Positions 10,975 to 40,621 of a stretch of 40,621 nucleotides of DNA are shown here, in pieces. Source of the stretch: Deferribacterales bacterium (lineage in GTDB: Bacteria; Chrysiogenota; Deferribacteres; Deferribacterales; Geovibrionaceae); NCBI GenBank assembly GCA_050253335.1, contig JBFWJG010000017.1:1-40621 (forward strand), written 5' to 3'. Positions within the stretch are counted from its first letter, which is position 1. Each line of letters starts with the position of its first letter. A program made the translations under genes and the position numbers. Under the pieces are notes generated by a model, which saw nothing but the letters and a program-made list of their open reading frames with translations, had not been told where the DNA came from and did no database searches.

Positions 10975-13194
10975 GTGGCTAAATTGATAGTAATCAAGCA
11001 CTCTCTCAAAGGGCGTATCCGCCTGAAATATAAAAACCTGATCGGCTCCCCTTCCCTAGCTTCCGCTGTGGAGGAAGGACTCCGCAGTATTAAAGGTGTG
11101 AGCGGAGCGAGATGCAGCCACATAGGGGGCAGCATAGTGATAAACTATGACTGCACCGTTGTTCTGCCGTCCGAGCTGATTAAGGCAGTGACAGAAGTGA
11201 AGTCCGCCCCTCGCAGAGCGGCAAAAGAGCCCGCCTGCAAAAGGCAGGGCTGCGTATGCGTAAGGAATGAGGAGCCCAAGGCAGACACAACTGCAACGGA
11301 GTTCGGCATACTTTCCGCCGTTCTCGGCGGCGTTTTCATACGCACAAAAATATTAAGACTGGCTGTCGGCCAGTCCCTGTTCAGCCCGCTTGGGCTAATA
11401 GCGGCCGCTTTCTCTGTTCCGCTCATAGCACGGGCTGTTAAGGACTTCGGCAAAACAGGCAAAGTTTCCCTGAACAGCTTTCTCGGAGCCGGTGTGGCAT
11501 CCGCCGCAATAGCGGGCGAGGCGCTCACTGCCCTTGAAATACTCTGGGTAAACACGGGAAGCGACCTGCTGAACGGCTACGTCACTGAAAAATCCCGCAA
11601 GGCGATAAAAAATATACTGGATGTCACATCCAAGACAGCCTTCGTTTACAGAGACGGGCAGGAGCTTGAAGTCCCCGTGGAGCAGATCCGCACCGGCGAC
11701 ACAGTGGTCATCCACACGGGAGAGAAAATCTCCGTTGACGGTCTCATAACCTGCGGTGAGGCTGCAATAAACGAGGCCTCCATAAACGGCCGCAGCGAGC
11801 TTGTGCACCGCTTCGAGGGTGAACAGGTATTCGCCGGAACCTATGTGCAGAACGGGCTGATATATGTTCAGGCAAGCCATGTGGGTGATGCCACATATCT
11901 TTCAAGGATACTCTGCCTTGTGGAGGACTCCCTCGGAAACAAGGCTCCCATAGAGCTTGAGGCGGACAGACTGGCCAGAAGGCTTGTGAACACAGGCTTC
12001 TGGATGACACTGGGAACCTTCCTCATCACCCGCAATTTTTACAGGGCATTTTCCGTACTGCTGGTGATGACATGCCCCTGCGCAACAGTTCTCGCCGCAT
12101 CCTCCGCCGTAAGCGCGGCAATTTCTAACGCCGCGTCCAGGGGCATACTTATCAAAGGGGGCAGATACCTTGAGGAAGCAGGTTCGCAGGAATCATTCTG
12201 CTTCGACAAAACAGGCACAATCACCACTGATGAACCGAAGGTTATCTCCATCATCCCCGTTAAAGGAAAAACCGAGTACGATGTAATATATTCAGCATAT
12301 ACGGCAGAGCTCCACAACAGGCACCCCGTCGCCGTGGCCATACGCGACAAGGCGCGGGAGATGTGCAGCACGGAAAGCACCCACGCCGTGTGCGAAACCA
12401 TCCTCGGAATGGGCGTGCGGGCGGAATCCATGGGCAGGGAGATCTTCATCGGCAACGCCAAGCTGATGAACAAGTACGGCATAAATATCTCCAAGCTCAC
12501 CAAAGCGAGGGATGAGGCGGAAAAGCTCGGTTTAAGCGTCATATATGTGGCGGAAGACGGAAAAGCCATCGGTATTCTCACTGTGGAAAACAGGCAGAAG
12601 GATAATGTTGAGGCTGTTATAAAAGGGCTCCGTGAGGAAGGGGTGAAGGAGTTCATCCTTGTTACCGGAGATGAAAAATACTCCGCTCAGGCTATGGCGG
12701 ACAGGCTGGGCTTCAACAAATGCCACTACTCCGTTCTGCCCGAACAGAAGGCGGACATAGTGGCTGAGATTCAGCAGTACCATAAGGTTACCATGATAGG
12801 CGACGGCATAAACGATGTGCTGGCGCTTGCCAAGGCGGATCTGGGCATAGCCATGGGTGCGGCGGGGTCTGACGTTGCTGTGGAAGCGGCGGACATAGCC
12901 CTTGTGGACGATGACCTTGAAAAAATACTTTACCTGAGGAAACTCAGCAGAAAGACAAAGGAAGTAATACACCAGAACTTCATGCTCGCGACAGGCTCAA
13001 ATGTGGCGGGCGCGTTTCTCGGCGCGGCGGGTCTTCTGCCGCCGGTTATGGCAGGTCTCCTGCACATAGCCCACACTGCGGGTGTTCTGGCAAACTCTTC
13101 CAGACTTTTAAAATATGAAATGCAGCCTCTCGACGTTCTAGAGACGGAAGCGGTTGAATTAACGGAGGATGGGGAAAAATGCTCGAAGATTTAA
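10975..13194 (+). CDS. Heavy-metal P1B-type ATPase, second ATPase of the ferrosome-like cluster (FezH-like)
   Basis: N-terminal HMA-like domain (HSLKGRIRLK), intramembrane CPC (VMTCPCA), FDKTGT, HP, TGD, MIGDGIND, C-terminal HxxH TM motif. The actuator TGE reads INGRSE. Confidence 0.9.
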   Translation: MAKLIVIKHSLKGRIRLKYKNLIGSPSLASAVEEGLRSIKGVSGARCSHIGGSIVINYDCTVVLPSELIKAVTEVKSAPRRAAKEPACKRQGCVCVRNEEPKADTTATEFGILSAVLGGVFIRTKILRLAVGQSLFSPLGLIAAAFSVPLIARAVKDFGKTGKVSLNSFLGAGVASAAIAGEALTALEILWVNTGSDLLNGYVTEKSRKAIKNILDVTSKTAFVYRDGQELEVPVEQIRTGDTVVIHTGEKISVDGLITCGEAAINEASINGRSELVHRFEGEQVFAGTYVQNGLIYVQASHVGDATYLSRILCLVEDSLGNKAPIELEADRLARRLVNTGFWMTLGTFLITRNFYRAFSVLLVMTCPCATVLAASSAVSAAISNAASRGILIKGGRYLEEAGSQESFCFDKTGTITTDEPKVISIIPVKGKTEYDVIYSAYTAELHNRHPVAVAIRDKAREMCSTESTHAVCETILGMGVRAESMGREIFIGNAKLMNKYGINISKLTKARDEAEKLGLSVIYVAEDGKAIGILTVENRQKDNVEAVIKGLREEGVKEFILVTGDEKYSAQAMADRLGFNKCHYSVLPEQKADIVAEIQQYHKVTMIGDGINDVLALAKADLGIAMGAAGSDVAVEAADIALVDDDLEKILYLRKLSRKTKEVIHQNFMLATGSNVAGAFLGAAGLLPPVMAGLLHIAHTAGVLANSSRLLKYEMQPLDVLETEAVELTEDGEKCSKI

Positions 13195-13484
13195 TCGCGG
13201 CGAAAAAATACGTCACGGTGGTTCACCATGTGGAAGGAAGGATAAGGCTCAAGGTTGACCCCTCCGTGGTGAAGGACCCCGTAAGCAAGAAACTTGAACA
13301 GATAAGCAGCAGCCTCCCCGGTGTGCTCGACACAAGGGTGAACATAATGGCGCGCTCAGTGGTTATACGCTACGACCCGAACATAATAGACCCGAAAACA
13401 TTTGAAAACCTGATAACAACAAAAGATACAGAAATTTGCAGAGAGATACTCAAACGTTACGAGGACACTTACATGCAAAGTTAA
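13179..13484 (+). CDS. Small HMA-like (HMA2) domain protein, FezC-like
   Basis: VVHHVEGRIRLK...LPGVLDTRVNIMARSVVIRYDP. Same Cys-less HxxxGRxR signature as the N-termini of both ATPases. RBS GGAGG upstream; overlaps the ATPase stop. Confidence 0.8.
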   Translation: MLEDLIAAKKYVTVVHHVEGRIRLKVDPSVVKDPVSKKLEQISSSLPGVLDTRVNIMARSVVIRYDPNIIDPKTFENLITTKDTEICREILKRYEDTYMQS

Positions 13485-13495
13485 GGAGGCAGTAA

Positions 13496-14179
13496 ATGGG
13501 AAAAAAAGCCGCTGATGCGGAAAATCCCGTAAAGGAAGAAAGCTGCACCGATAAGCCGCAGAAAGATTCTGCATCGGGAAAAGAAAAAACAACGGAAAAC
13601 CCTCCTCAGAATGCCTTCAGAGCATCGGAGAAACCGGAAAGCGCAGAAGAAGCGCACGCCGGAAACCAAACGGAAATACCCCACGGATACGCACCAAACG
13701 GAGAAGAGTTCACAGGTATGCCTGAATACGGATTTCAGCAGCCGCCCTACGGCCATATGCCGCCGCCTCCCCCTCCTTACGGATACGGCTATATGCCGCC
13801 TCAGCCGCCTTACGGGTATATGCCTCAGATGCCGTACGGATATATGCCGCCACCCCCGCCGCCATACGGTTACATGCCGCCTCAGCCGCCTTACGGCTAT
13901 ATGCCGCAAATGCCTCATGGGGCACACCACACAGAGCACCACGGGGAAGACCCCTTCGGCATGCTCTTCGGCAAATTCGGGGAGATGATCAAGGAAAACC
14001 CCAATCTTTCCGCAGTGGGAAAAATTGCGGATGCGTCAGGAAGCGACTTTATCAAGGGAATGCTGATCGGGGCGGGCGTTGCCATGCTCTTTTCCAACGA
14101 TTCCATAAAGGATTCACTGATGAGTATTTTCTCTAAAACACTCGGCGGCATGACAGACGATGCCGAAGAGACCGAATAA
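13496..14179 (+). CDS. Membrane protein with Pro/Tyr/Met-rich repeats and a C-terminal GxxxG helix (YtxH-like, ferrosome accessory)
   Basis: RBS AAGGAGG. Acidic disordered N-terminus, PYGYMP repeats, HGAHHTEHHG, then SDFIKGMLIGAGVAMLFSN. Confidence 0.8.
   Translation: MGKKAADAENPVKEESCTDKPQKDSASGKEKTTENPPQNAFRASEKPESAEEAHAGNQTEIPHGYAPNGEEFTGMPEYGFQQPPYGHMPPPPPPYGYGYMPPQPPYGYMPQMPYGYMPPPPPPYGYMPPQPPYGYMPQMPHGAHHTEHHGEDPFGMLFGKFGEMIKENPNLSAVGKIADASGSDFIKGMLIGAGVAMLFSNDSIKDSLMSIFSKTLGGMTDDAEETE
13742..13921 (+). repeat. Coding low-complexity repeat: six PYG(Y/H)MP-type units arranged as two ~27-29 aa blocks
   Basis: PYGHMPPPPPPYGYGYMPPQPPYGYMPQM followed by PYGYMPPPPPPYGYMPPQPPYGYMPQM. The copies use different synonymous codons. 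Confidence 0.9.
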
Positions 14180-14191
14180 GGAGGATTTTTT

Positions 14192-14596
14192 ATGCACCAT
14201 CTGGCAAAAGCGGCCGCGGGAGCCTCTCTCATAGGGGCGGCGGCAGGCGCTGTAGTGGGCGGAGCAGTTTCCGCAGCAAAACAGGCGCAGGATGTTAAGG
14301 AAGGAAAAATCACCAAGGAAGAAGCGGCCAAAAGAACCGCAAAAGACGCGGCAGGCGCAGGAGCGGCGACAGCAGTGGGCGTTGCGGCTGTGAGCCTTCT
14401 CAGGCTCGGCGGCGTTTTCGGCATACTCACGGTTTTTGCCGTTGCCGCAGGCACAAAATACCTTCTGGACACCGAAGGCAAAAAGACCTGTAAAAAAGTG
14501 AAAGCAGCAGCAGGCAAAGCCGCCGGAAAAGTAAGCGAAGCGGCAGCCTCCGTCAGTGAAAAGCTTAAAGACGAAGAACCCTTGAAATCAGAATAA
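14192..14596 (+). CDS. MamC-like Gly/Ala-rich membrane protein (ferrosome accessory, FezD-like)
   Basis: GAVVGGAVSAAKQAQDVKEGKITKEEAAKRTAKDAAGAGAATA...VAAGTKYLLD follows the MamC/Mms13 pattern as I recall it (GALVGGAAALAKN...ITNTEAA...GAGLATA...AAKYAWD). RBS AAGGAGG. Confidence 0.78.
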   Translation: MHHLAKAAAGASLIGAAAGAVVGGAVSAAKQAQDVKEGKITKEEAAKRTAKDAAGAGAATAVGVAAVSLLRLGGVFGILTVFAVAAGTKYLLDTEGKKTCKKVKAAAGKAAGKVSEAAASVSEKLKDEEPLKSE

Positions 14597-14617
14597 TATA
14601 TAAAAAAGGAGATTGAC

Positions 14618-14932
14618 ATGAGCGATCAGAAACAGAATCCCCAGAACCCTCAGGCACCCCACTACGGATATTACCCCTACCCCTACCCTCCCCAGCAGCA
14701 GTATGCGGATCCTTCCGTTTACCCCCATCTTAAACAGTGGTTCAACTTCCGTGAACCCAGCTATGTAAAAGGCTTCGCAGTGGGTGCGGGCATTGCCCTT
14801 CTGCTCACCAACCCCACAGTTAAAAAAGCCATAGTCAAAGGCGTTGTTAAGGTTTGGGGCGGACTTCAGTCCGGCGTTGAAGAGCTGAAAGAGCAGATCA
14901 GGGATGTTCAGGCGGAAGTCGAAGGAGAATAA
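14618..14932 (+). CDS. Small GxxxG membrane protein with a Gln/Pro/Tyr-rich N-terminus and C-terminal coiled coil (YtxH-like/FezA-like)
   Basis: QNPQNPQAPHYGYYPYPYPPQQQY; SYVKGFAVGAGIALLLTNPTVKK; GVEELKEQIRDVQAE. RBS AAGGAG. Confidence 0.8.
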   Translation: MSDQKQNPQNPQAPHYGYYPYPYPPQQQYADPSVYPHLKQWFNFREPSYVKGFAVGAGIALLLTNPTVKKAIVKGVVKVWGGLQSGVEELKEQIRDVQAEVEGE

Positions 14933-14934
14933 GC

Positions 14935-15156
14935 GTGAGCGGCGAAAAGAAGGCGGCGAAGAAGAAAAATCCGTCCGCCGTAATGCGAAAACGCAGGCTG
15001 GTCAAAAACGCCATGATACTCACCATGGCGGCGACTGTTGTCTCAGGGTTCGGTAAAGGCAAGGCGGCAAAGCATGTGCACATAGCCGCCGGATGCGCCC
15101 TTGTGGGTTTAAGTATTTACCACAACTACCTTTACCCTGAAAATATGAAAAGTTAG
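14935..15156 (+). CDS. Small two-TM membrane protein with paired histidines
   Basis: GTG start after GGAGA. Basic N-terminus, hydrophobic helix, then KHVHIAAGCALVGLSIYH. Fills the gap within the operon. Confidence 0.7.
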   Translation: MSGEKKAAKKKNPSAVMRKRRLVKNAMILTMAATVVSGFGKGKAAKHVHIAAGCALVGLSIYHNYLYPENMKS

Positions 15157-15179
15157 AAGGTGCTGTCATTTTAGGCTCA

Positions 15180-17279
15180 ATGTTTTTCACCGGACTTGAA
15201 AAGGTCGGAATAGTGCATGACATGCCGGGGCGAATCCGTCTCAAGGCTCCCGTTCTGGGCAATCCCGCTCTGGATGCAACCCTTGTGGAATCCGGTCTGG
15301 AGCAGATTAAGGGCGTGAAATCCGTCCGTGTGAACCAGAAGGCCAAAACGGCAGTGGTCAACTTTGACAAAAATACAGATGTACGGGGCGATGTTCTGGA
15401 TGTTCTCTCAGCGTTCAGCCATACGGTTTTCAACGCGGAGGAGGAACTCCAGAACTCTCCGGATTTAATCAATGTCTACTGGGCGGGAACAATGTGGATT
15501 CTCAAGCTGTTCCTGCCGCAGGGGCTTAGGCGCCCGCTTACTTATCTCGGCGCCGCACCTATCCTCATGGAGGGTATAGAAACTCTGTTCACCAGAGGAC
15601 TCAAGGTCGAAGTGCTGGACGCGGCGGTTATCTCCATGCTGCTTGCCAGAAAGGACTACTTCACCGCAGGCTCCATAACCTTCCTGCTTAATCTGGGACA
15701 TTATCTTGAGGAATCCGCCGAGTACAGATCCGACAAAATGCTGAAAAGCCTTATCAAGCCCGAAGTGGAATACGTCTGGGTTGTCAGGGGGCAGTCGGAA
15801 GAAAAAACGGCGGTCACCGATCTCCAGATTGGCGATATGGTGCGCGCGGGCTCAGGGGAGATGATACCTGTGGACGGCAAAGTCGCCTCCGGAGAGGGGC
15901 TTGTGAATCAGGCCTCGGTGACAGGCGAAAGTCTGCCTGTTCACATCAAGCCGGGTGACTACGTATATTCCGGCACAGTGATGGCCGAAGGAAAAATCAT
16001 CATCGAAGCCGAAAAGGTCGGCTCCGAAACAACAACTGCCCGCATAGCCAAATTCATAAGCAATTCTCTGAAAAACAAATCCAGAACGGAAGTGAAAGCC
16101 TTCGCCGCGGCTGACAAAATGGTTCCAGTGACCTTTGCCGCAGGGCTTGCGACCCTGCTTCTCACAAGGGATTTCAGGCGTGCGTCCTCTGTTCTTTCCG
16201 TGGACTATTCATGCGCGCTCCAGCTTGTCACGCCGACAGCGATCAAGGCCAGCATGTTCAACGCCGCAACAGAAGGCATATTCATCAAGGGCGCTCAGGC
16301 CCTTGAAAACCTTGCGGAAATAGACACTATCATCTTTGACAAAACAGGAACGCTCACAAAAGGGATGCTCTCCGTAACGGAGGTTCAGCCCTATAACGGA
16401 TATAATGAAAACGAAATAGTCAGAATCGCGGCCTCTGCCGAGGAATACTACTCACACCCCATAGCCTCCGCCGTTGTGAAGGAGGCCGAAAACCGCGGCC
16501 TCAAAACAGAGCAGACAGGCGAGGTGGACTTCATCATAGCCCACGGCGTTTCCGCCTATGTGGGGGGCAAAAACGTCCTTGTGGGGAGCCACCATTTCGT
16601 GGCGGAGGATGAAAAAATCGTCTGCTGTTTCGCTGATGAAGACGCAGGCAGAATGCGCAAAAAGGGGCAGACAATACTTTATGTCGCTATAGACGGGAAG
16701 CTCTGCGGGCTGATTGCGCTCAAAGATACCTTGCGCGATGAATCGGCTCAGGTTATAAAAGAGCTAAAGAAGCACGGCGTTAGAAAGACCGTTATGCTCA
16801 CCGGCGACCACCGTGATTCCGCACTGCATGTGGCGGAACTGCTCGGAATAGACGAAGTTTATTATGAAATGAAGCCCGAAGACAAAGCGGGCATAGTGAA
16901 ACAGCTTAAAAATCAGGGGTGCAGAATCGCCTTCGCAGGAGACGGTGTGAACGACGCACCCGCCCTGCTCACCGCAGATGTGGGCATCAGCCTTCCTCAG
17001 GGGGCGGATCTCGCTAAAGAGACAGCCGCAGTCATACTCCTTAGGGAAGACCTCATGGGAATAGTCAAAGCAAGGGTTCTTGCTGTGAAAACCATGAAGG
17101 TCATAAGGCAGATGTTCCGGTTTAACATAGGCGTGAACACCGCCACCGTTGCTCTCTCGCTCATGGGCAGAATAAGCCCGCTGGCAAGCGCTCTGCTCCA
17201 CAACGGAACCACGCTTTCGACACTGATTTACGCCCTCAGCCTCTCCTCCTACGGCGTAAAAAGAAAAAAGGAGAAGTAG
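15180..17279 (+). CDS. fezB: P1B-6 type ATPase, ferrosome iron transporter FezB-like
   Basis: N-terminal HDMPGRIRLK, intact TGES, SVLSVDYSCAL (P1B-6 DYSC motif), IFDKTGT, HP, GDGVND, LLHNGTT (HNxxT). Confidence 0.88.
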   Translation: MFFTGLEKVGIVHDMPGRIRLKAPVLGNPALDATLVESGLEQIKGVKSVRVNQKAKTAVVNFDKNTDVRGDVLDVLSAFSHTVFNAEEELQNSPDLINVYWAGTMWILKLFLPQGLRRPLTYLGAAPILMEGIETLFTRGLKVEVLDAAVISMLLARKDYFTAGSITFLLNLGHYLEESAEYRSDKMLKSLIKPEVEYVWVVRGQSEEKTAVTDLQIGDMVRAGSGEMIPVDGKVASGEGLVNQASVTGESLPVHIKPGDYVYSGTVMAEGKIIIEAEKVGSETTTARIAKFISNSLKNKSRTEVKAFAAADKMVPVTFAAGLATLLLTRDFRRASSVLSVDYSCALQLVTPTAIKASMFNAATEGIFIKGAQALENLAEIDTIIFDKTGTLTKGMLSVTEVQPYNGYNENEIVRIAASAEEYYSHPIASAVVKEAENRGLKTEQTGEVDFIIAHGVSAYVGGKNVLVGSHHFVAEDEKIVCCFADEDAGRMRKKGQTILYVAIDGKLCGLIALKDTLRDESAQVIKELKKHGVRKTVMLTGDHRDSALHVAELLGIDEVYYEMKPEDKAGIVKQLKNQGCRIAFAGDGVNDAPALLTADVGISLPQGADLAKETAAVILLREDLMGIVKARVLAVKTMKVIRQMFRFNIGVNTATVALSLMGRISPLASALLHNGTTLSTLIYALSLSSYGVKRKKEK

Positions 17280-17999
17280 ATGCTTAACCTTCAACACGCC
17301 GAAAGCGGCCTCTGCTACATAATCAAAGGAACCCCGCAGGGGGAATCCGCCCAGAAGCTCGCTTCTCTTGGGCTTTATAAAGGCAGTGCCGTGACAAAGC
17401 TCGAAACTGATGACATAAAATATCCCACCGTCAAAGTTGACACAAAAAACGGAGTAAGGGTTATAAGCGGTCAGCTCGCAAAGCATATCACTGTCCGTGC
17501 GGGCTCAGGAGAGCCGAAACCATTTTACACTGCCCCCCTTTCATCCACAGTAATCACCCATAATCTCGGCAGGTGCGATAAAAACGCCGCCAGACTCGCC
17601 ATGCTCGGCATAAAGGAAAGAATAAAGCTGAAAATAATAAAATACCTGCCACCTATGGAGTATGTTGTTATGGTTAATCACAAAAACCGTGTGCGCATTT
17701 CAGAGGCTGTCGCCGCAATGATAATAGGCGATACGGAGAACAGGAAGAATTTTCAGTTCACATTCTCACCCAAAGGGGCGGAATTTAAAGTTAAAGGCAT
17801 AGCGGCAGGGAAGAAAATAACCGCCTTCCTCTGCGGTGTCGATATATGCACAGGCTCCGTAATAAGCATGGAAGGAATAGAAAGCGGAAAGCGGGTGGAT
17901 CTTGATGCTGAGCAAGATGTCGTTCTCCACACTCATGAAGGGCTTATAATAACCATGTCCGCAAAAACCGCCTCAATGATCGAAGTCGGCCATCATTAA
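17280..17999 (+). CDS. Tandem FeoA-domain protein
   Basis: Repeated FeoA-like segments (QKLASLGLYKGSAV, RLAMLGIKE, FLCGVDICTGSVI) with RVISGQLAKHITV and MSAKTASMIEV ends. Starts immediately after the fezB stop. Confidence 0.65.
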   Translation: MLNLQHAESGLCYIIKGTPQGESAQKLASLGLYKGSAVTKLETDDIKYPTVKVDTKNGVRVISGQLAKHITVRAGSGEPKPFYTAPLSSTVITHNLGRCDKNAARLAMLGIKERIKLKIIKYLPPMEYVVMVNHKNRVRISEAVAAMIIGDTENRKNFQFTFSPKGAEFKVKGIAAGKKITAFLCGVDICTGSVISMEGIESGKRVDLDAEQDVVLHTHEGLIITMSAKTASMIEVGHH

Positions 18000-18053
18000 A
18001 AACCGCACATCCTGCTCTTGTGTTCGTACTGACAGCGTTTAATCGGCTATTTC

Positions 18054-18148
18054 AAATCCCCCTCAGTCCCCCTTTAAAAAAGGGGGAAGCTATTGCAGAT
18101 AAAGGCAAAAAACACCCTCCTTTCCTAAAAGAGGGCGGGGGAGGATTT
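18054..18148 (+). repeat. Family-A 95-bp MITE/REP-like element, copy 1
   Basis: AAATCCCCC...CCCCCTTT-AA-AAAGGGGG-type hairpin...CCCTCCTTT-N3-AAAAGAGGG hairpin...GGGGAGGATTT; the ends are imperfect inverted repeats. Confidence 0.85.
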
Positions 18149-18214
18149 ATGTAGACATATTTTTTTCAGCTTTTGAAATAAACATGTAGTTGAATCACTC
18201 TATATCTGCCGTTC

Positions 18215-18292
18215 GTCACTCTGAACGCCAGTGAAGAGTCTCAACTTCCCGGCAATCTGAGATTCTTCACCCCCTACGGGGTTCAGAATGAC
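18215..18292 (+). repeat. Family-B palindromic element (GTCACTCTGAAC...GTTCAGAATGAC), copy 1
   Basis: Terminal inverted repeats plus the internal pair GTGAAGAGTCTCA / TGAGATTCTTCAC. A second copy is at 34062-34130. Confidence 0.85.
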
Positions 18293-18371
18293 GCTGCTCA
18301 TCTGTCATAACAATCCAAAACCGTACATCCTGCCCTTGTGTTCATGTCGGCAGTCTTTGAACAGCTATTTC

Positions 18372-18466
18372 AAATCCCCCTCAGTCCCCCTTTAAAAAAG
18401 GGGGAAGCTATTGCAGATAAAGGCAAAAAACACCCTCCTTTCCTAAAGGAGGGCAGGGGAGGATTT
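18372..18466 (+). repeat. Family-A 95-bp element, copy 2
   Basis: Nearly identical to 18054-18148. Confidence 0.85.
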
Positions 18467-18487
18467 AAAAAGAAGTCCTGTTTCCGC

Positions 18488-22462: not shown

Positions 22463-22990
22463 ATGAAGATACTTTACTTTCCGGGACTTGCCCATGTTGT
22501 TGAAAAATCAGTAAATACAAAGAACAGCCTGAAATATATCCACCTCGCCGGCCGCTTCCATGTTGACATCTACCCATACAGCCGCACACCTGAACTCAGC
22601 GATATAAAAGGTTATGACGCCCTTGTGGGCTCATCATTCGGGGGGTATTTCGCTCTCAACATGGCGGCACGGAAAAACATAACAGGAATCGCCGTTAACC
22701 CGTCATTCTATCTGGACAAGCGAATACGGATGCTGAAAGTCACAGGAGACGGGCTGGATCACATTGACGAGGACAGGCTCATAACTCTGAAATGCGCCGA
22801 ATCACTGAAAAAAAACGGAAACATGCTTCATGTTTTTATGAATATGGATGATGATGTGATTGAGCCTTCGGGGATAAAAAGAGCGTGCACTGAACACGGA
22901 ATAAATTTTTATCAGTTCGACAGCGGCGGTCACGAAGCCCATAACTTCGAAAAGGATATGATGCCCGTAATAATGGAGATTCTGAGATAA
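22463..22990 (+). CDS. YqiA/YcfP-like alpha/beta hydrolase (putative esterase)
   Basis: ILYFPG, nucleophile elbow GSSFGG, VNPS, DDVI (Asp), GGH (His). ATG at 22463 follows AGAGGGG. Confidence 0.8.
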   Translation: MKILYFPGLAHVVEKSVNTKNSLKYIHLAGRFHVDIYPYSRTPELSDIKGYDALVGSSFGGYFALNMAARKNITGIAVNPSFYLDKRIRMLKVTGDGLDHIDEDRLITLKCAESLKKNGNMLHVFMNMDDDVIEPSGIKRACTEHGINFYQFDSGGHEAHNFEKDMMPVIMEILR

Positions 22991-23145
22991 CAACCCCAAG
23001 GAAGGGGTTGCGCCGTGCGGAGCGAAGCCTTGCTTTGCAAGGCGCGAGCGTGTATTCAAAATTTCCATGGATGGTAAATTTTGAATTATCAGAACAAGAT
23101 GCTGCGCCGTGCGGAGCGAAGTCTTCCTTTGCAAGGCGCGGGCGG
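22991..23145 (+). repeat. Family-C three-hairpin GGA-loop element (22991-23085) plus a degenerate second copy
   Basis: CAACCCC-AAGGAA-GGGGTTG, CGCCGTGCGGAGCGAA, GCCTTGC-TTT-GCAAGGC, GCGAGCGTGTA, TTCAAAATTTCC-ATGGAT-GGTAAATTTTGAA. The core recurs at about 23104-23145. Confidence 0.85.
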
Positions 23146-23153
23146 TTCCTAAC

Positions 23154-23248
23154 AAATCCTTGCCCGCCCTCCTTTATCAAAGGAGGGCATTTTTGCTTTT
23201 AACCGCAACAGCTTCCCCCTTTTTCAAAGGGGGACCGGAGGGGGATTT
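23154..23248 (-). repeat. Family-A 95-bp element, copy 3 (reverse orientation)
   Basis: Reverse complement reads AAATCCCCCTCCGGTCCCCCTTTGAAAAAGGGGGAAGCT...CCCTCCTTTGATAAAGGAGGGCGGGCAAGGATTT. Confidence 0.85.
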
Positions 23249-23277
23249 AAGACATCCTTAGTCACCCCTCTCCTAAG

Positions 23278-24981
23278 CTAAAACTTCACAACCTTAGGCG
23301 TGTTTTTCGCAAATTGCGGCATTGTCATTCCGGCTTTTGCGTTTATGTATGTCGGGTCAGTGACAGTATAGCGTTTGCCTTCAAATGTCACATAATCGCC
23401 TTTCACGTTTGATTTAAAAGCTACAGCCGCCGCTATGTGCCCCGGATAATCCAGAAACACAGCATCCAGTCCGAGAAGCTGTTTCACCAGATAAGTGAAG
23501 AGTATGCTCCTGTCCTCGCAGTCTGAGTAAGGGTAGTAGATTGTTTCCATGGCAAAGAGGAATTTCTCCCGTCCGAACTGCTGATCATCCGTTGCATATT
23601 TAAACGCTGTCTGAACGAACTTGAGAAGGATATTCACGGCCTCCTCATCACTTTTGCCTTTTATAATGGGCGCAAGCTGAGTAAGAAGCGGCTTGCCTGC
23701 CCAGTCGGGAAGTCCGGCCTCTCCGTAAAGATTCACATCTGTCTGCGGATGATATTTCAGATAAACTATATCGTTCATATTATAAGGAACTTTTATACTG
23801 AAAGACTGCCCGCCGTAGCTGAAGCTGAGCTCTCTCTCGGAAATTTTTCTGCCGAAGTCAGGATAATCCGCCATGCGGAAGTCCATGGCTCTGTCCGCCT
23901 TGGGGTAGCTTTTTTCATAAGTGTACACACTGCCGAGATTTTTAATGAACCCGTCAGCGGAAACAGCGTAGTATCTCTTATCGTTAAGCGTGAAGAATGA
24001 GACTCCGTAAAGCTTTGTGCTTGCGGGAACAAGAAGGTACACATTGCTTTTGTCGTATGCGGTTCTTGTTTCATAGCCTGCTTTGCTGAGGATGAACCAT
24101 GTGAGCAGAACCTTTCCGTTCCTATCCGCCGCTATTTTTCCGGAAGCCTCGCTCACAAGGAGGATGAACCCCCAGTCAGTCATTTTAAGCTCTTTTCTGT
24201 ATTTAAGAAGGTTGTTAACCAAAGGCTCGTAGTCCGAAAGAGCCGCCTTCTCCCAGAATTCACCCAGCTTCTTCCCGTTAAGAGGCTCTTCCGCTCCAAG
24301 CTGAAGTTTGGGGTCATAGCCGACTTTAACAGGACTGCCGAAGAAAACAAATTCCAGCGCTCTCCCTTTTATCACCGGAGGAGCCACTACAACCGGCTCG
24401 GGAACCGGAACAGGCACAGGCTGAGGAATCACCGTAACTTCGGGTAAAGGCTTCAGCTGAGGTTTGGGCTCAGGCTTCACCACAGGTGCGGGAACAGGCT
24501 CAGGCTTGGGTTCAGGCTTAGCCACAGGCGCAGGAGCAGGCTCGGGCTTGGGTTCAGGCTTCACCACAGGCGCGGGAGCAGGCTCGGGCTTGGGCTCAGG
24601 CTTCACCACAGGCGCGGGAGCAGGCTCGGGCTTCACCACTGGCGAGGGGGGCATGGGGGGCAGGGGTTTGACAGGTTCCGGAACGATTATCGGCTTGGGC
24701 TGTACAGGTTTTGCAACAGGAAGCGGAGCTTTTTCCTCACTGGGCGGCGCCACAGGTATTTTTATCGGCTTGGGCTCGTCAATCTGCTTAACCGGTTCCT
24801 CTGTCTCGACGCGGATCCACATCTCTTTCAGAAAGGCGGTAAATTCCTTATCCCTTTCATCCTTAAACTGCTGGAACTCGTCCATCTGTGATTTCATATA
24901 TTCTTCAAATGTTTCAGCATTTATCACTGAGAAAGTGGAAAACACCGTGAGAATTATCAAAGCCGTTCTGCCGAAGCGCAT
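23278..24981 (-). CDS. Exported protein with a Pro-rich repeat linker and a transglutaminase-like C-terminal domain
   Basis: Signal peptide; helical N-terminus; PEPKPEPAPAPVVK repeats; C-terminal YPYSDCEDRS (Cys), YPGHIA (His), TDPTY (Asp). Confidence 0.75.
   Translation of the reverse strand: MRFGRTALIILTVFSTFSVINAETFEEYMKSQMDEFQQFKDERDKEFTAFLKEMWIRVETEEPVKQIDEPKPIKIPVAPPSEEKAPLPVAKPVQPKPIIVPEPVKPLPPMPPSPVVKPEPAPAPVVKPEPKPEPAPAPVVKPEPKPEPAPAPVAKPEPKPEPVPAPVVKPEPKPQLKPLPEVTVIPQPVPVPVPEPVVVAPPVIKGRALEFVFFGSPVKVGYDPKLQLGAEEPLNGKKLGEFWEKAALSDYEPLVNNLLKYRKELKMTDWGFILLVSEASGKIAADRNGKVLLTWFILSKAGYETRTAYDKSNVYLLVPASTKLYGVSFFTLNDKRYYAVSADGFIKNLGSVYTYEKSYPKADRAMDFRMADYPDFGRKISERELSFSYGGQSFSIKVPYNMNDIVYLKYHPQTDVNLYGEAGLPDWAGKPLLTQLAPIIKGKSDEEAVNILLKFVQTAFKYATDDQQFGREKFLFAMETIYYPYSDCEDRSILFTYLVKQLLGLDAVFLDYPGHIAAAVAFKSNVKGDYVTFEGKRYTVTDPTYINAKAGMTMPQFAKNTPKVVKF
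24473..24642 (-). repeat. 42-bp coding tandem repeat (about 3.7 copies, 14 aa unit EPKPEPAPAPVVKP)
   Basis: On the + strand the unit GGCTTCACCACAGGCGCGGGAGCAGGCTCGGGCTTGGGTTCA and variants start at 24473, 24515, 24557 and 24599. Confidence 0.9.
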
Positions 24982-33685: not shown

Positions 33686-33775
33686 AAACTAAAGCTCCTT
33701 TTGATATAGATCAGTAAAACTGATCTTAAAGACAGCAAAAAGTACCACAGGTTCTGAAAAAAGTCTAATTAATAA

Positions 33776-34051
33776 CAAAAATCCCCCGTCCTGCGGGATT
33801 TTTGTACACGCTCGCGGTTTGCAAAGCAAACCTTCGCTACGCACGGCGCATTTCCATCCATGGAAATGTGACGGGACAAATAATGCAATGACCTCTTTAT
33901 CCTGCCCCCAATCCTGCGGGATTTTTGTACACGCTCGTGGTTTGCAAAGCAAACCTTCGCTACGCACGGCGCATTTCCATCCATGGAAATGTGACGGGAC
34001 AAATAATGCAATGACCTCTTTATCCTGCCCTCACGTCCTGCGGGATTTTTG
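33776..34051 (-). repeat. Tandem array (period 123-124 bp, about 2.1 copies) of the family-C three-hairpin element
   Basis: Units start at 33789, 33912 and 34036. The minus strand reads CATTTCC-ATGGAT-GGAAATG, CGCCGTGCGTAGCGAA, GGTTTGC-TTT-GCAAACC, GCGAGCGTGTA, CAAAAATCCCGC-AGGAC-GGGGGATTTTTG. Confidence 0.92.
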
Positions 34052-34061
34052 CCCGCCGCAG

Positions 34062-34130
34062 GTCACTCTGAGCAAAGCGAAGAGTCTCAGCCCAATCAAA
34101 CAAGAGATTCTTCACTGCGTTCAGAATGAC
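34062..34130 (+). repeat. Family-B palindromic element, copy 2
   Basis: GTCACTCTGAGC...GAAGAGTCTC...GAGATTCTTCACTGCGTTCAGAATGAC, same layout as 18215-18292. Confidence 0.85.
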
Positions 34131-34168
34131 TGAAGGGAGAGCCATTACCATAAAATATCCTACCCCGT

Positions 34169-40279: not shown

Positions 40280-40320
40280 AATTGGCGGCAGGCAGGAAAA
40301 CAAATTTAAGTACACCTGCA

Positions 40321-40400
40321 AAATCCCCCTCTATCCCCCTTTAAAAAAGGGGGAAGCTGATAAGAACACCCCTCTTTCATAAAGAGGGGCAGGACAGGAT
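40321..40400 (+). repeat. Family-A element, copy 4 (shorter spacer; its right end runs into a family-C hairpin)
   Basis: AAATCCCCCTCTATCCCCCTTTAAAAAAGGGGGAAGCT...CCCCTCTTT-CAT-AAAGAGGGG-CAGGACAGGAT. Confidence 0.8.
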
Positions 40401-40621
40401 GTACCTGCCTGCGGACTATCATCAAAACAGCATTACAATTCCATGGATGGAATTGCGCCGTGCGAAATGAAGCCGAACCGAGTTCGGCGCGAATGTGTGA
40501 GCAGCAGGACAGGATGTACCTGCCTGCGGACTATCATCAAAACAGCATTACAATTCCATGGATTGAATTGCGCCGTGCGAAATGAAGCCGAACCCAGTTC
40601 GGCGCGAAAGCGTGAGCAGCA
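40389..40621 (+). repeat. Tandem array (period 115 bp, at least 2 copies, truncated by the window) of the family-C element
   Basis: Units start at 40390 and 40505. Reads CAATTCC-ATGGAT-GGAATTG, CGCCGTGCGAAATGAA, GCCGAAC-CGA-GTTCGGC, GCGAATGTGTGA, GCAGCAGGAC-AGGAT-GTACCTGCCTGC. Confidence 0.9.

Follow-up and report, generated by a model that had tools for sequence, protein, structure and literature searches.

Several places in one stretch of Deferribacterales DNA carry the same short repeat of three hairpins, whose stems differ from copy to copy while their pairing persists. What keeps such a fold, and how does the repeat spread? The stretch analysed here (the window, 40,621 nt) is contig C17 of a 2.58-Mb Deferribacterales genome (G000), which we compared with the congeners G001, G002 and G003, the last of them closed. 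The original prediction, made from the letters of the window, regarded the repeat as a candidate structured RNA or single-stranded DNA motif under selection for its fold. Our results point to a likelier reason for the conservation of the fold, which that prediction overlooked: mobile insertion with long duplications of the flanking DNA.

Architecture of the repeat

Copy 1 displays the complete layout on the plus strand. Hairpin H1 (22991..23010; 7 bp, with an AAGGAA hexaloop and a C-G closing pair) begins directly 3' of the TAA stop codon (22988-22990) of a UPF0227-like gene. The conserved 16-nt linker that follows (23011..23026) contains GC-GNA-GC, a DNA mini-hairpin sequence whose sole free base is N, and a three-way junction is predicted, in which the linker's opening 6 nt pair with the conserved post-H2 motif GCGAGCGTGT (23044..23053). 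Between linker and motif lies hairpin H2 (23027..23043), with a fixed length of 17 nt and a variable stem. Hairpin H3 (23054..23086) has about 13 bp, an ATGGAT loop and a single bulged base on its 3' side, 2 bp from the loop. The extent of ~95 nt first given to the element is too short: it continues ~10 nt beyond H3, through a family-wide 3' tail (23087..23096), up to a near-fixed 3' junction at the end of the tail, 40-46 nt past the post-H2 motif, which is where the junction with duplicated host DNA falls.

On the minus strand, copy 2 (33899..33991) comprises H1, linker, H2, post-H2 motif and the 5' half of H3, and is the first of two 123-nt tandem units 3' of a glycosyltransferase gene. Copy 3 (33764..33868, minus strand), upstream of a thioredoxin/DsbA-like gene, is complete, with an AGGAC pentaloop in H3 and the tail. 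Copy 4 (40436..40540, plus strand), a 115-nt tandem unit downstream of purH, has a disrupted mini-hairpin; its site in the congeners holds different H1/H2 variants and the same H3. Copy 5 (40551..40621, plus strand) has an H1 mismatch and a broken GCGNAGC mini-hairpin and is cut by the contig end; contig C43 opens with its unit sequence. All five copies had been predicted at these places, the minus-strand ones and those at 40436 and 40551 included, and all are real, but a sixth was missed: copy 1b (23105..23147, plus strand), a truncated second unit with linker, H2 and post-H2 motif and without H1 or H3. The copies are also less uniform than they were thought to be, in that 33899-33991 lacks the 3' arm of H3, 40551 carries the H1 mismatch, and copies 4 and 5 break the mini-hairpin. 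The order H1-linker-H2-H3 holds overall, but H2, described as 7 bp with a 3-nt loop, usually has 6 bp and a 5-nt loop, its seventh pair being Watson-Crick in just 58 of 131 H2s of 17 nt.

The genes flanking the window copies (UPF0227-like, glycosyltransferase, thioredoxin-like, purH) are ordinary ones. At the 22991 site G001 has a short hairpin only. We detected no host-DNA duplicate at the three clusters of the window, the last of which is cut by the contig end.

The window holds other repeats and genes of note. A palindromic REP-like repeat, GTC...GAC, lies at 34060-34131 (minus strand); its arm has a [G/A]CGNAG[C/T]GAAG core common to the hairpin family, and the genome has 37 intergenic arms of this GTC type. 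A third family, the double hairpin CCCCCTTT...AAAGGGGG, occurs at 17999-18467, 23154-23250 and 40320-40390 and often adjoins the hairpin repeat; gene-end duplication was absent in 19 spacers with it. The region 10975-17999 (plus strand) is a cluster of two heavy-metal P-type ATPase genes, a proline/tyrosine-rich repeat ORF (13496-14179) and a FeoA-domain gene. At 23278-24981 (minus strand) lies a 567-aa ORF with no Pfam match, in which a 42-nt (14-codon) proline-rich tandem repeat at 24414-24665 shows a 12-nt indel in related-strain contigs.

Covariation of the stems and the linker mini-hairpin

The copy at 22989-23095 has a folding z of -5.7 as RNA and -6.0 as DNA. In an alignment of 60 copies picked for diversity, pairing was kept in 92.5% of cells and both sides had changed at 6/7 pairs of H1, 5/6 of H2 and 12/13 of H3. 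The covariation score was 0.558 versus 0.153 for shuffled alignments, a value that none of 500 shuffles reached, and slid controls gave at most 0.128. Thus, stems do vary with their pairing preserved, as first claimed. A wider set of 504 distinct copies, from this genome, parts of the three congeners and one metagenome strain, contains 65, 45 and 150 different 5' arms of H1, H2 and H3, respectively. The bulge two pairs from the H3 loop is kept in 268 of 315 H3 variants, and loops of the form C-A(N)GGAN-G are found in 370/504 H1s and 445/504 H3s. The most conserved part of the element is the linker, not the GGA loops.

The idea of selection on a single-stranded fold holds insofar as fold and covariation are genuine and the sense strand looks like the folded one; part of the apparent compensation may come from swapping of modules. 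At 33 orthologous sites filled in both G002 and G000, all three hairpins are the same in 11, one or two differ in 18 and all differ in 4, with some parsing noise, a pattern in the compared copies which suggests that hairpin modules are exchanged. Mismatches on the sense strand are more often G-T than A-C (97:40; single mutations, 21:5), which is only moderate evidence since C mutates more on the sense strand generally. Nothing in our analysis points to a ribozyme.

The two conserved linkers are predicted to pair, closing the three-way junction, in 22-23 of 40 copies with DNA parameters and in 12-13 of 40 with RNA parameters, and GC-GNA-GC folds in 17/40 copies when treated as DNA and in under 8 when treated as RNA. 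Its free base is A in 208 copies, C in 125, G in 101 and T in 70. Because the linker pairs, while 98-99% intact, display zero two-sided changes, the junction helix and the mini-hairpin stand as predictions. In relatives, the mini-hairpin has a four-base loop, GCGNNAGC (GCGNRAGC). A search for this tetraloop returned 57 pattern matches, of which 14 were dismissed as chance and 43 judged element-like by eye; the 43 fall into five loop types, each of them GNRA. According to the accessible text of PMC13037366, GCGNAGC and GCGNNAGC are two forms of a stable DNA mini-hairpin, GNRA is the RNA form, and the RNA versions are much less stable, as demonstrated for the tetraloop. The loop therefore argues for both DNA and RNA, since GCGNNAGC is the DNA form yet GNRA the RNA form.

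Copy number and distribution

The repeat far exceeds chance: the genome has 96 exact-pattern matches versus 0 for the reversed pattern, our control. Counts in the four genus genomes are 96, 59, 84 and 215, and among the 31 genomes searched in all, one other had a single match and the remaining 26 had none. G000 contains 87 exact-core matches and, with fragments, 176 profile matches; 141 copies could be parsed, in 89 clusters, 87 of which lie outside genes by our own hexamer-model gene calls. A covariance-model scan of relatives, proposed with the original prediction, recovered related elements in 27 of 68 phylum genomes, with 14/15 in the element's own family, 12/21 in one other family and no related element in the phylum's other families. 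Copy number among kin ranges from 1 to more than 200.

Farther afield, a GTDB-wide pattern scan gave at least 75 loci, and the non-Deferribacterales matches among those listed lack the hairpins and look like chance. Viral contigs had 0 exact matches; a looser pattern gave 120, and model R1 scored none of the 80 that were put to it. In a metagenome scan, 27 of 31 matches came from one assembly and resembled the genus, the other 4 being chance. Assembled contigs from four compost metatranscriptomes of a related strain show read depth piling up on the repeat, and because it is multi-copy this depth is uninformative on expression. Our literature search, whose reach left out most subscription journals, found no paper describing the repeat.

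Orientation and placement

Copies have a preferred direction. In G000, copies are gene-sense in 36 of 44 co-directional spacers (36:8), and 21 copies lie in convergent versus 3 in divergent spacers, the background being 84 to 203. For G003 we analysed 60 regions covering 201 of the 215 exact matches, with origin and terminus taken from GC skew: 82 of 101 clusters are gene-sense and 72 of 102 lie on the leading strand. Split by gene strand, sense orientation prevails 42:7 for leading-strand genes and 8:4 for lagging-strand genes, and in convergent spacers the leading-strand bias is weak (21:10 in G003, p = 0.07; 9:7 in G000). Gene-direction and replication biases both exist, and gene direction is the stronger. 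The GC skew of G003:C1 changes sign near 0.14-0.16 Mb and near 1.62 Mb, and dnaA, at position 325, lies ~150 kb away from the origin that the skew defines.

In 21/65 and 30/82 sense clusters, the start of H1 falls between -2 and +9 nt relative to a stop codon. Many G000 clusters end 2-7 nt from the stop codon of a convergent gene or 20-28 nt before the next start codon, which suggests that stop codons on the reverse strand come from the tail, or that the tail lies against ribosome-binding sites.

Duplicated host DNA flanks many clusters

Host DNA just 5' of H1, often a gene end, is frequently repeated right 3' of the element. Of 278 clusters, 45 have such a duplicate 3' of their final copy (29 of the 139 single copies do), versus 2 of 4148 mismatched pairs. 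With array spacers included, 88 of 308 clusters have a duplicate, 7-116 nt long, and 220 have no detectable one; because orthologous sites are counted once per genome, the duplicated clusters are not independent events. The 88 comprise 40 single copies, 15 arrays with duplicates in both positions, 27 with a duplicate in a spacer only and 6 with one after the last copy only. The 27 spacer-only arrays fit in-place duplication better than fresh insertion. Half of the junctions (44/88) follow the rule C[AG]/G, the slash marking the junction, and half fail it; among those that follow it, 39 begin with GA and 43 fall 40-46 nt past the post-H2 motif.

Among 65 spacers with a sense copy, 20 repeat the last 60 nt of the gene, as does 1 of 33 with an antisense copy. 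Among control spacers these 60 nt recur in 0/41 with only the GTC-type REP, 0/19 with only a CCCCC-type repeat and 1/389 'repeat-free' ones, the sole positive of which holds a variant copy (1/449 over all controls). The gene-end duplication is thus specific to the hairpin repeat. In other genera, duplications were found at 4/26 versus 3/650, one of the four being array-internal.

Comparison of orthologous sites reveals presence and absence. An orthologue without the core was found for 16 of the 45 duplicated clusters. By eye, about five of these loci are clean: the orthologue has the DNA once and continues into the matching downstream sequence. One of the five gains a new TGA stop codon from the element. 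Several 'empty' orthologues hold element remnants. Of 100 G003 clusters with two flanking genes, 70 could be mapped to a site in G000, 46 of them filled (shared) and 24 empty; the other 30 went unpaired.

At three loci, a private H1 3' arm complements sequence within the duplicated flank. We considered whether the H1 arm is templated by the target: six candidate loci have private arms at three and common arms at the other three.

G000 also has a longer sister family (21 pattern matches, for example at C8:~46970-47190, plus strand, and on C21, C23, C32 and C41), which shares H1, H3 and tail with the hairpin repeat but differs in the centre, where several GNA mini-hairpin sequences lie. One copy on C8 has an exact gene-end duplicate and the same CA/GA junction.

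Candidate mobilising enzymes

None of the four genus genomes, the closed one included, has a Y1 HUH, IS110 or DDE_Tnp_1 transposase, whereas such transposases are numerous in other genera of the order. The RVT_1 reverse transcriptase is absent from G000, G002 and the closed G003 and present only in G001; for a SINE-like route a transient helper is conceivable. Cas1 occurs in two of the four genus genomes and is absent from G000 and G002. GIY-YIG proteins were rejected as the enzyme: those of G000, G001 and G003 are of UvrC length only, and small forms occur in families without the element. Two stand-alone GIY-YIG genes (96-105 aa), at L032 (G006:C1:246846-250067) and L038 (G002:C5:18979-22200), are flanked on both sides by direct repeats of the GTC-type REP, suggesting a mobile cassette.

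Comparison with known systems

An Rfam scan of the window at E <= 5 returned six weak, unrelated matches and no family at threshold. The repeat belongs to no Rfam family at gathering score, as had been surmised; that it is an unrelated new motif finds no support, since TD-2 (RF03162, clan CL00124, Treponema denticola) shares its layout (E = 0.003). The TD-2 model aligns end to end at 33.8 bits, below its gathering cut-off of 48.7, with its best score at a copy outside the window; it matches 3 places in the genome at E <= 1 and no window copy at E <= 5. Like the hairpin repeat, TD-2 consists of three hairpins at similar spacing, the outer two of which bear A(N)GGAN loops, but its linker sequence is another and its H2 longer. 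It is multi-copy and covarying and its function unknown, and the accessible text of PMC1950547 describes no flank duplications. TwoAYGGAY (RF01731), with two hairpins bearing AYGGAY loops and several copies in one genome (PMC2864571), is longer and of different architecture; its model reached 22.4 bits at best (E = 0.67; threshold 43). GGAM, considered as a candidate GGA motif, was dropped since the top-ranked paper for it concerns a guanidine riboswitch.

The closest system in behaviour is YPAL/RU-2 of Yersinia. This 168-bp repeat is intergenic, has internal inverted repeats and, in the part of the source available, no terminal TA; it shows target duplications of 3-26 bp and empty and filled sites, and is expressed with upstream genes (PMC2229807). 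The hairpin repeat is likewise intergenic, with target duplications of variable length and empty and filled sites. In the printed RU-2 sequence (PMC2759123, Table 1b) we read two C-ANGGAN-G hairpin loops; compared by eye, the loops are shared and the linker is not. YPAL is a nearly uniform 168 bp, whereas the hairpin repeat has ~110 nt, highly diverse stems and duplications of up to 116 nt.

REP/BIME elements with their RAYT (TnpA-REP), like the hairpin repeat, are intergenic and enriched 3' of genes; they are high-copy and prefer spacers between co-directional and convergent genes (PMC3733652), and the core of the mini-hairpin is common to the 37 GTC-type REP arms here. The hairpin repeat differs from such REP families (PMC3733652, PMC3184786) in that its genus has no RAYT and that its arrays run head to tail, not as inverted pairs. 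The GTAG and CGTC REP families belong to the same comparison, and the GTC-type REPs of this genome, unlike the hairpin repeat, show no gene-end duplication (0/41). Direct repeats of variable length, 8-514 bp, accompany IS1549/IS1634, for which the consulted part of a review gave no mechanistic model as of its writing (PMC2266710); these are full insertion sequences with a DDE transposase and terminal inverted repeats, whereas the hairpin repeat has neither. As to a MITE mobilised by a DDE enzyme, the ends of the repeat are not complementary by eye and its duplications span 7-116 nt in place of a short fixed length. A reverse transcriptase acting in trans, as for SINE-like elements, is lacking in G000, G002 and G003 and present in G001. 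CsrB/RsmY/RsmZ resemble the repeat in presenting GGA in penta- or hexaloops closed by C-G, but the repeat has two sites per unit, dispersed 3' of genes and between cistrons, and is not one gene with many sites. By the tests run, the repeat resembles TD-2 in appearance and a YPAL-type mobile element in the way it works, and it is a member of neither.

A model for insertion and its alternatives

We then propose, with confidence a little better than even, that the ~110-nt repeat is a non-autonomous mobile element inserted by an enzyme from a folded single-stranded copy of its sense strand. The fixed fold, the orientation biases, presence and absence at orthologous sites and the duplications with a near-fixed 3' junction were observed directly, and from them we infer the steps of insertion. 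The sense strand would fold when exposed as single-stranded DNA, either while serving as lagging-strand template or when displaced during transcription of a gene. An enzyme would then join the fixed 3' end of the element to a nick just before GA, and a few matching bases would mediate the joining of the 5' end at a point some tens of bases downstream, such that the intervening DNA is made twice. Insertions that spare the gene or give it a new stop codon would be retained by selection, so that copies would pile up at stops. Tandem arrays could arise by repetition of the reaction in place or by recombination between duplicates, and binding of CsrA to the GGA loops in read-through mRNA would be a possible side effect. 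Several observations speak against this model: the enzyme families searched yielded no candidate, most clusters, those of the window included, have no detectable duplicate, half of the junctions are off the rule, several 'empty' sites hold remnants, the leading-strand bias in convergent spacers is weak, and GNRA is an RNA signature. We know of no HUH reaction that makes a target duplication.

One possible alternative is that the same element is copied via RNA, a read-through transcript being reverse-transcribed from a nicked target as in eukaryotic SINEs, with the GGA and GNRA loops as RNA features. In target-primed reverse transcription the 3' end is fixed, the 5' join varies and so does the length of the duplications, a pattern that the element matches; the gene-sense bias exceeds the replication bias, GNRA is found in 43/43 element-like matches of relatives, C-A(N)GGAN-G loops predominate in H1 (370/504) and H3 (445/504), and single stem mutations prefer G-U over A-C by 21:5. 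However, RVT_1 is missing from three of the genus genomes (G000, G002 and the closed G003), there is no poly(A) or simple-repeat tail, and the tetraloops are of five types only. The genus itself has the GNA triloop, described as a DNA mini-hairpin whose RNA versions are much less stable (PMC13037366, for the tetraloop). C>A and C>G are skewed like C>T, so the strand asymmetry may be mutational. We place DNA ahead of RNA, and hold the RNA route to be unlikely, because single-stranded exposure of the sense strand, as lagging-strand template and as displaced strand, fits both orientation biases. More improbable still is a process without any dedicated mechanism, in which replication stalls at hairpin-rich DNA, flanks are duplicated and stems mended to perfect palindromes by template switching, gene conversion spreads modules, and covariation is a mutational by-product. 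It would accommodate the independent differences among modules (18/33 filled G002/G000 pairs mixed, with some parsing noise), the three loci where a private H1 3' arm complements the duplicated flank, and the 27 arrays that resemble in-place duplications. Two other hairpin repeat families of the same genome nevertheless show 0/60 gene-end duplications, the junction is fixed and prefers GA, and stem repair would erase the bulge (conserved in 268/315 H3s) and the fixed spacing, both of which are kept; we consider this process very unlikely.

The fold might instead be kept mainly for a function in mRNA, namely CsrA docking (a dispersed sponge) or protection from decay in 3' UTRs and between cistrons, mobility having merely placed the copies. 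The loops match the CANGGANG apical hexaloop, with GGA in hairpin loops; CANGGANG has been described as a site to which CsrA/RsmE binds with high affinity, and such loops are bound by a CsrA of the FliW type (PMC4894983). In the genome csrA adjoins a fliW-like gene, copies are sense-oriented and avoid divergent spacers (3 versus 21 convergent), and 46 of the 70 mapped sites are common to G000 and G003. From these loop sequences, CsrA may bind the repeat as a predicted role. However, csrA is present in 60 of 68 phylum genomes versus the element in 27, with no mutual tracking, copy number varies from 1 to over 200 among kin, and the linker is more conserved than the GGA loops. As the main reason for the fold, a function in mRNA seems quite doubtful to us, and it is compatible with insertion from a single-stranded copy.

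Implications

How small bacterial repeats without an enzyme of their own spread, and how long variable target duplications originate, are open questions; for IS1549/IS1634 the IS4 review had no model to offer (PMC2266710). What is new in the hairpin repeat is the long duplicates of host DNA with a near-fixed junction after H3, for which YPAL is the precedent. Hundreds of insertion footprints that share a defined junction, in genomes without the usual transposases, make the reaction directly testable.

Orphan Rfam motifs with GGA loops, such as TD-2, which are filed as candidate RNAs, may be YPAL-like mobile repeats. It is a speculative thought, and one we would rate as improbable, that the hairpin repeat, YPAL, TD-1/TD-2 and TwoAYGGAY form one unrecognised class of GGA-loop, single-strand, SINE-like elements, which would be target-primed at gene ends with a fixed 3' end and long variable duplications, moved by a host enzyme or a passing one outside the known transposase families, and would scatter CsrA docking sites through 3' UTRs. 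If CsrA does bind the loops, the repeat would have added at least 200 sites to the mRNAs of a FliW-type CsrA system.
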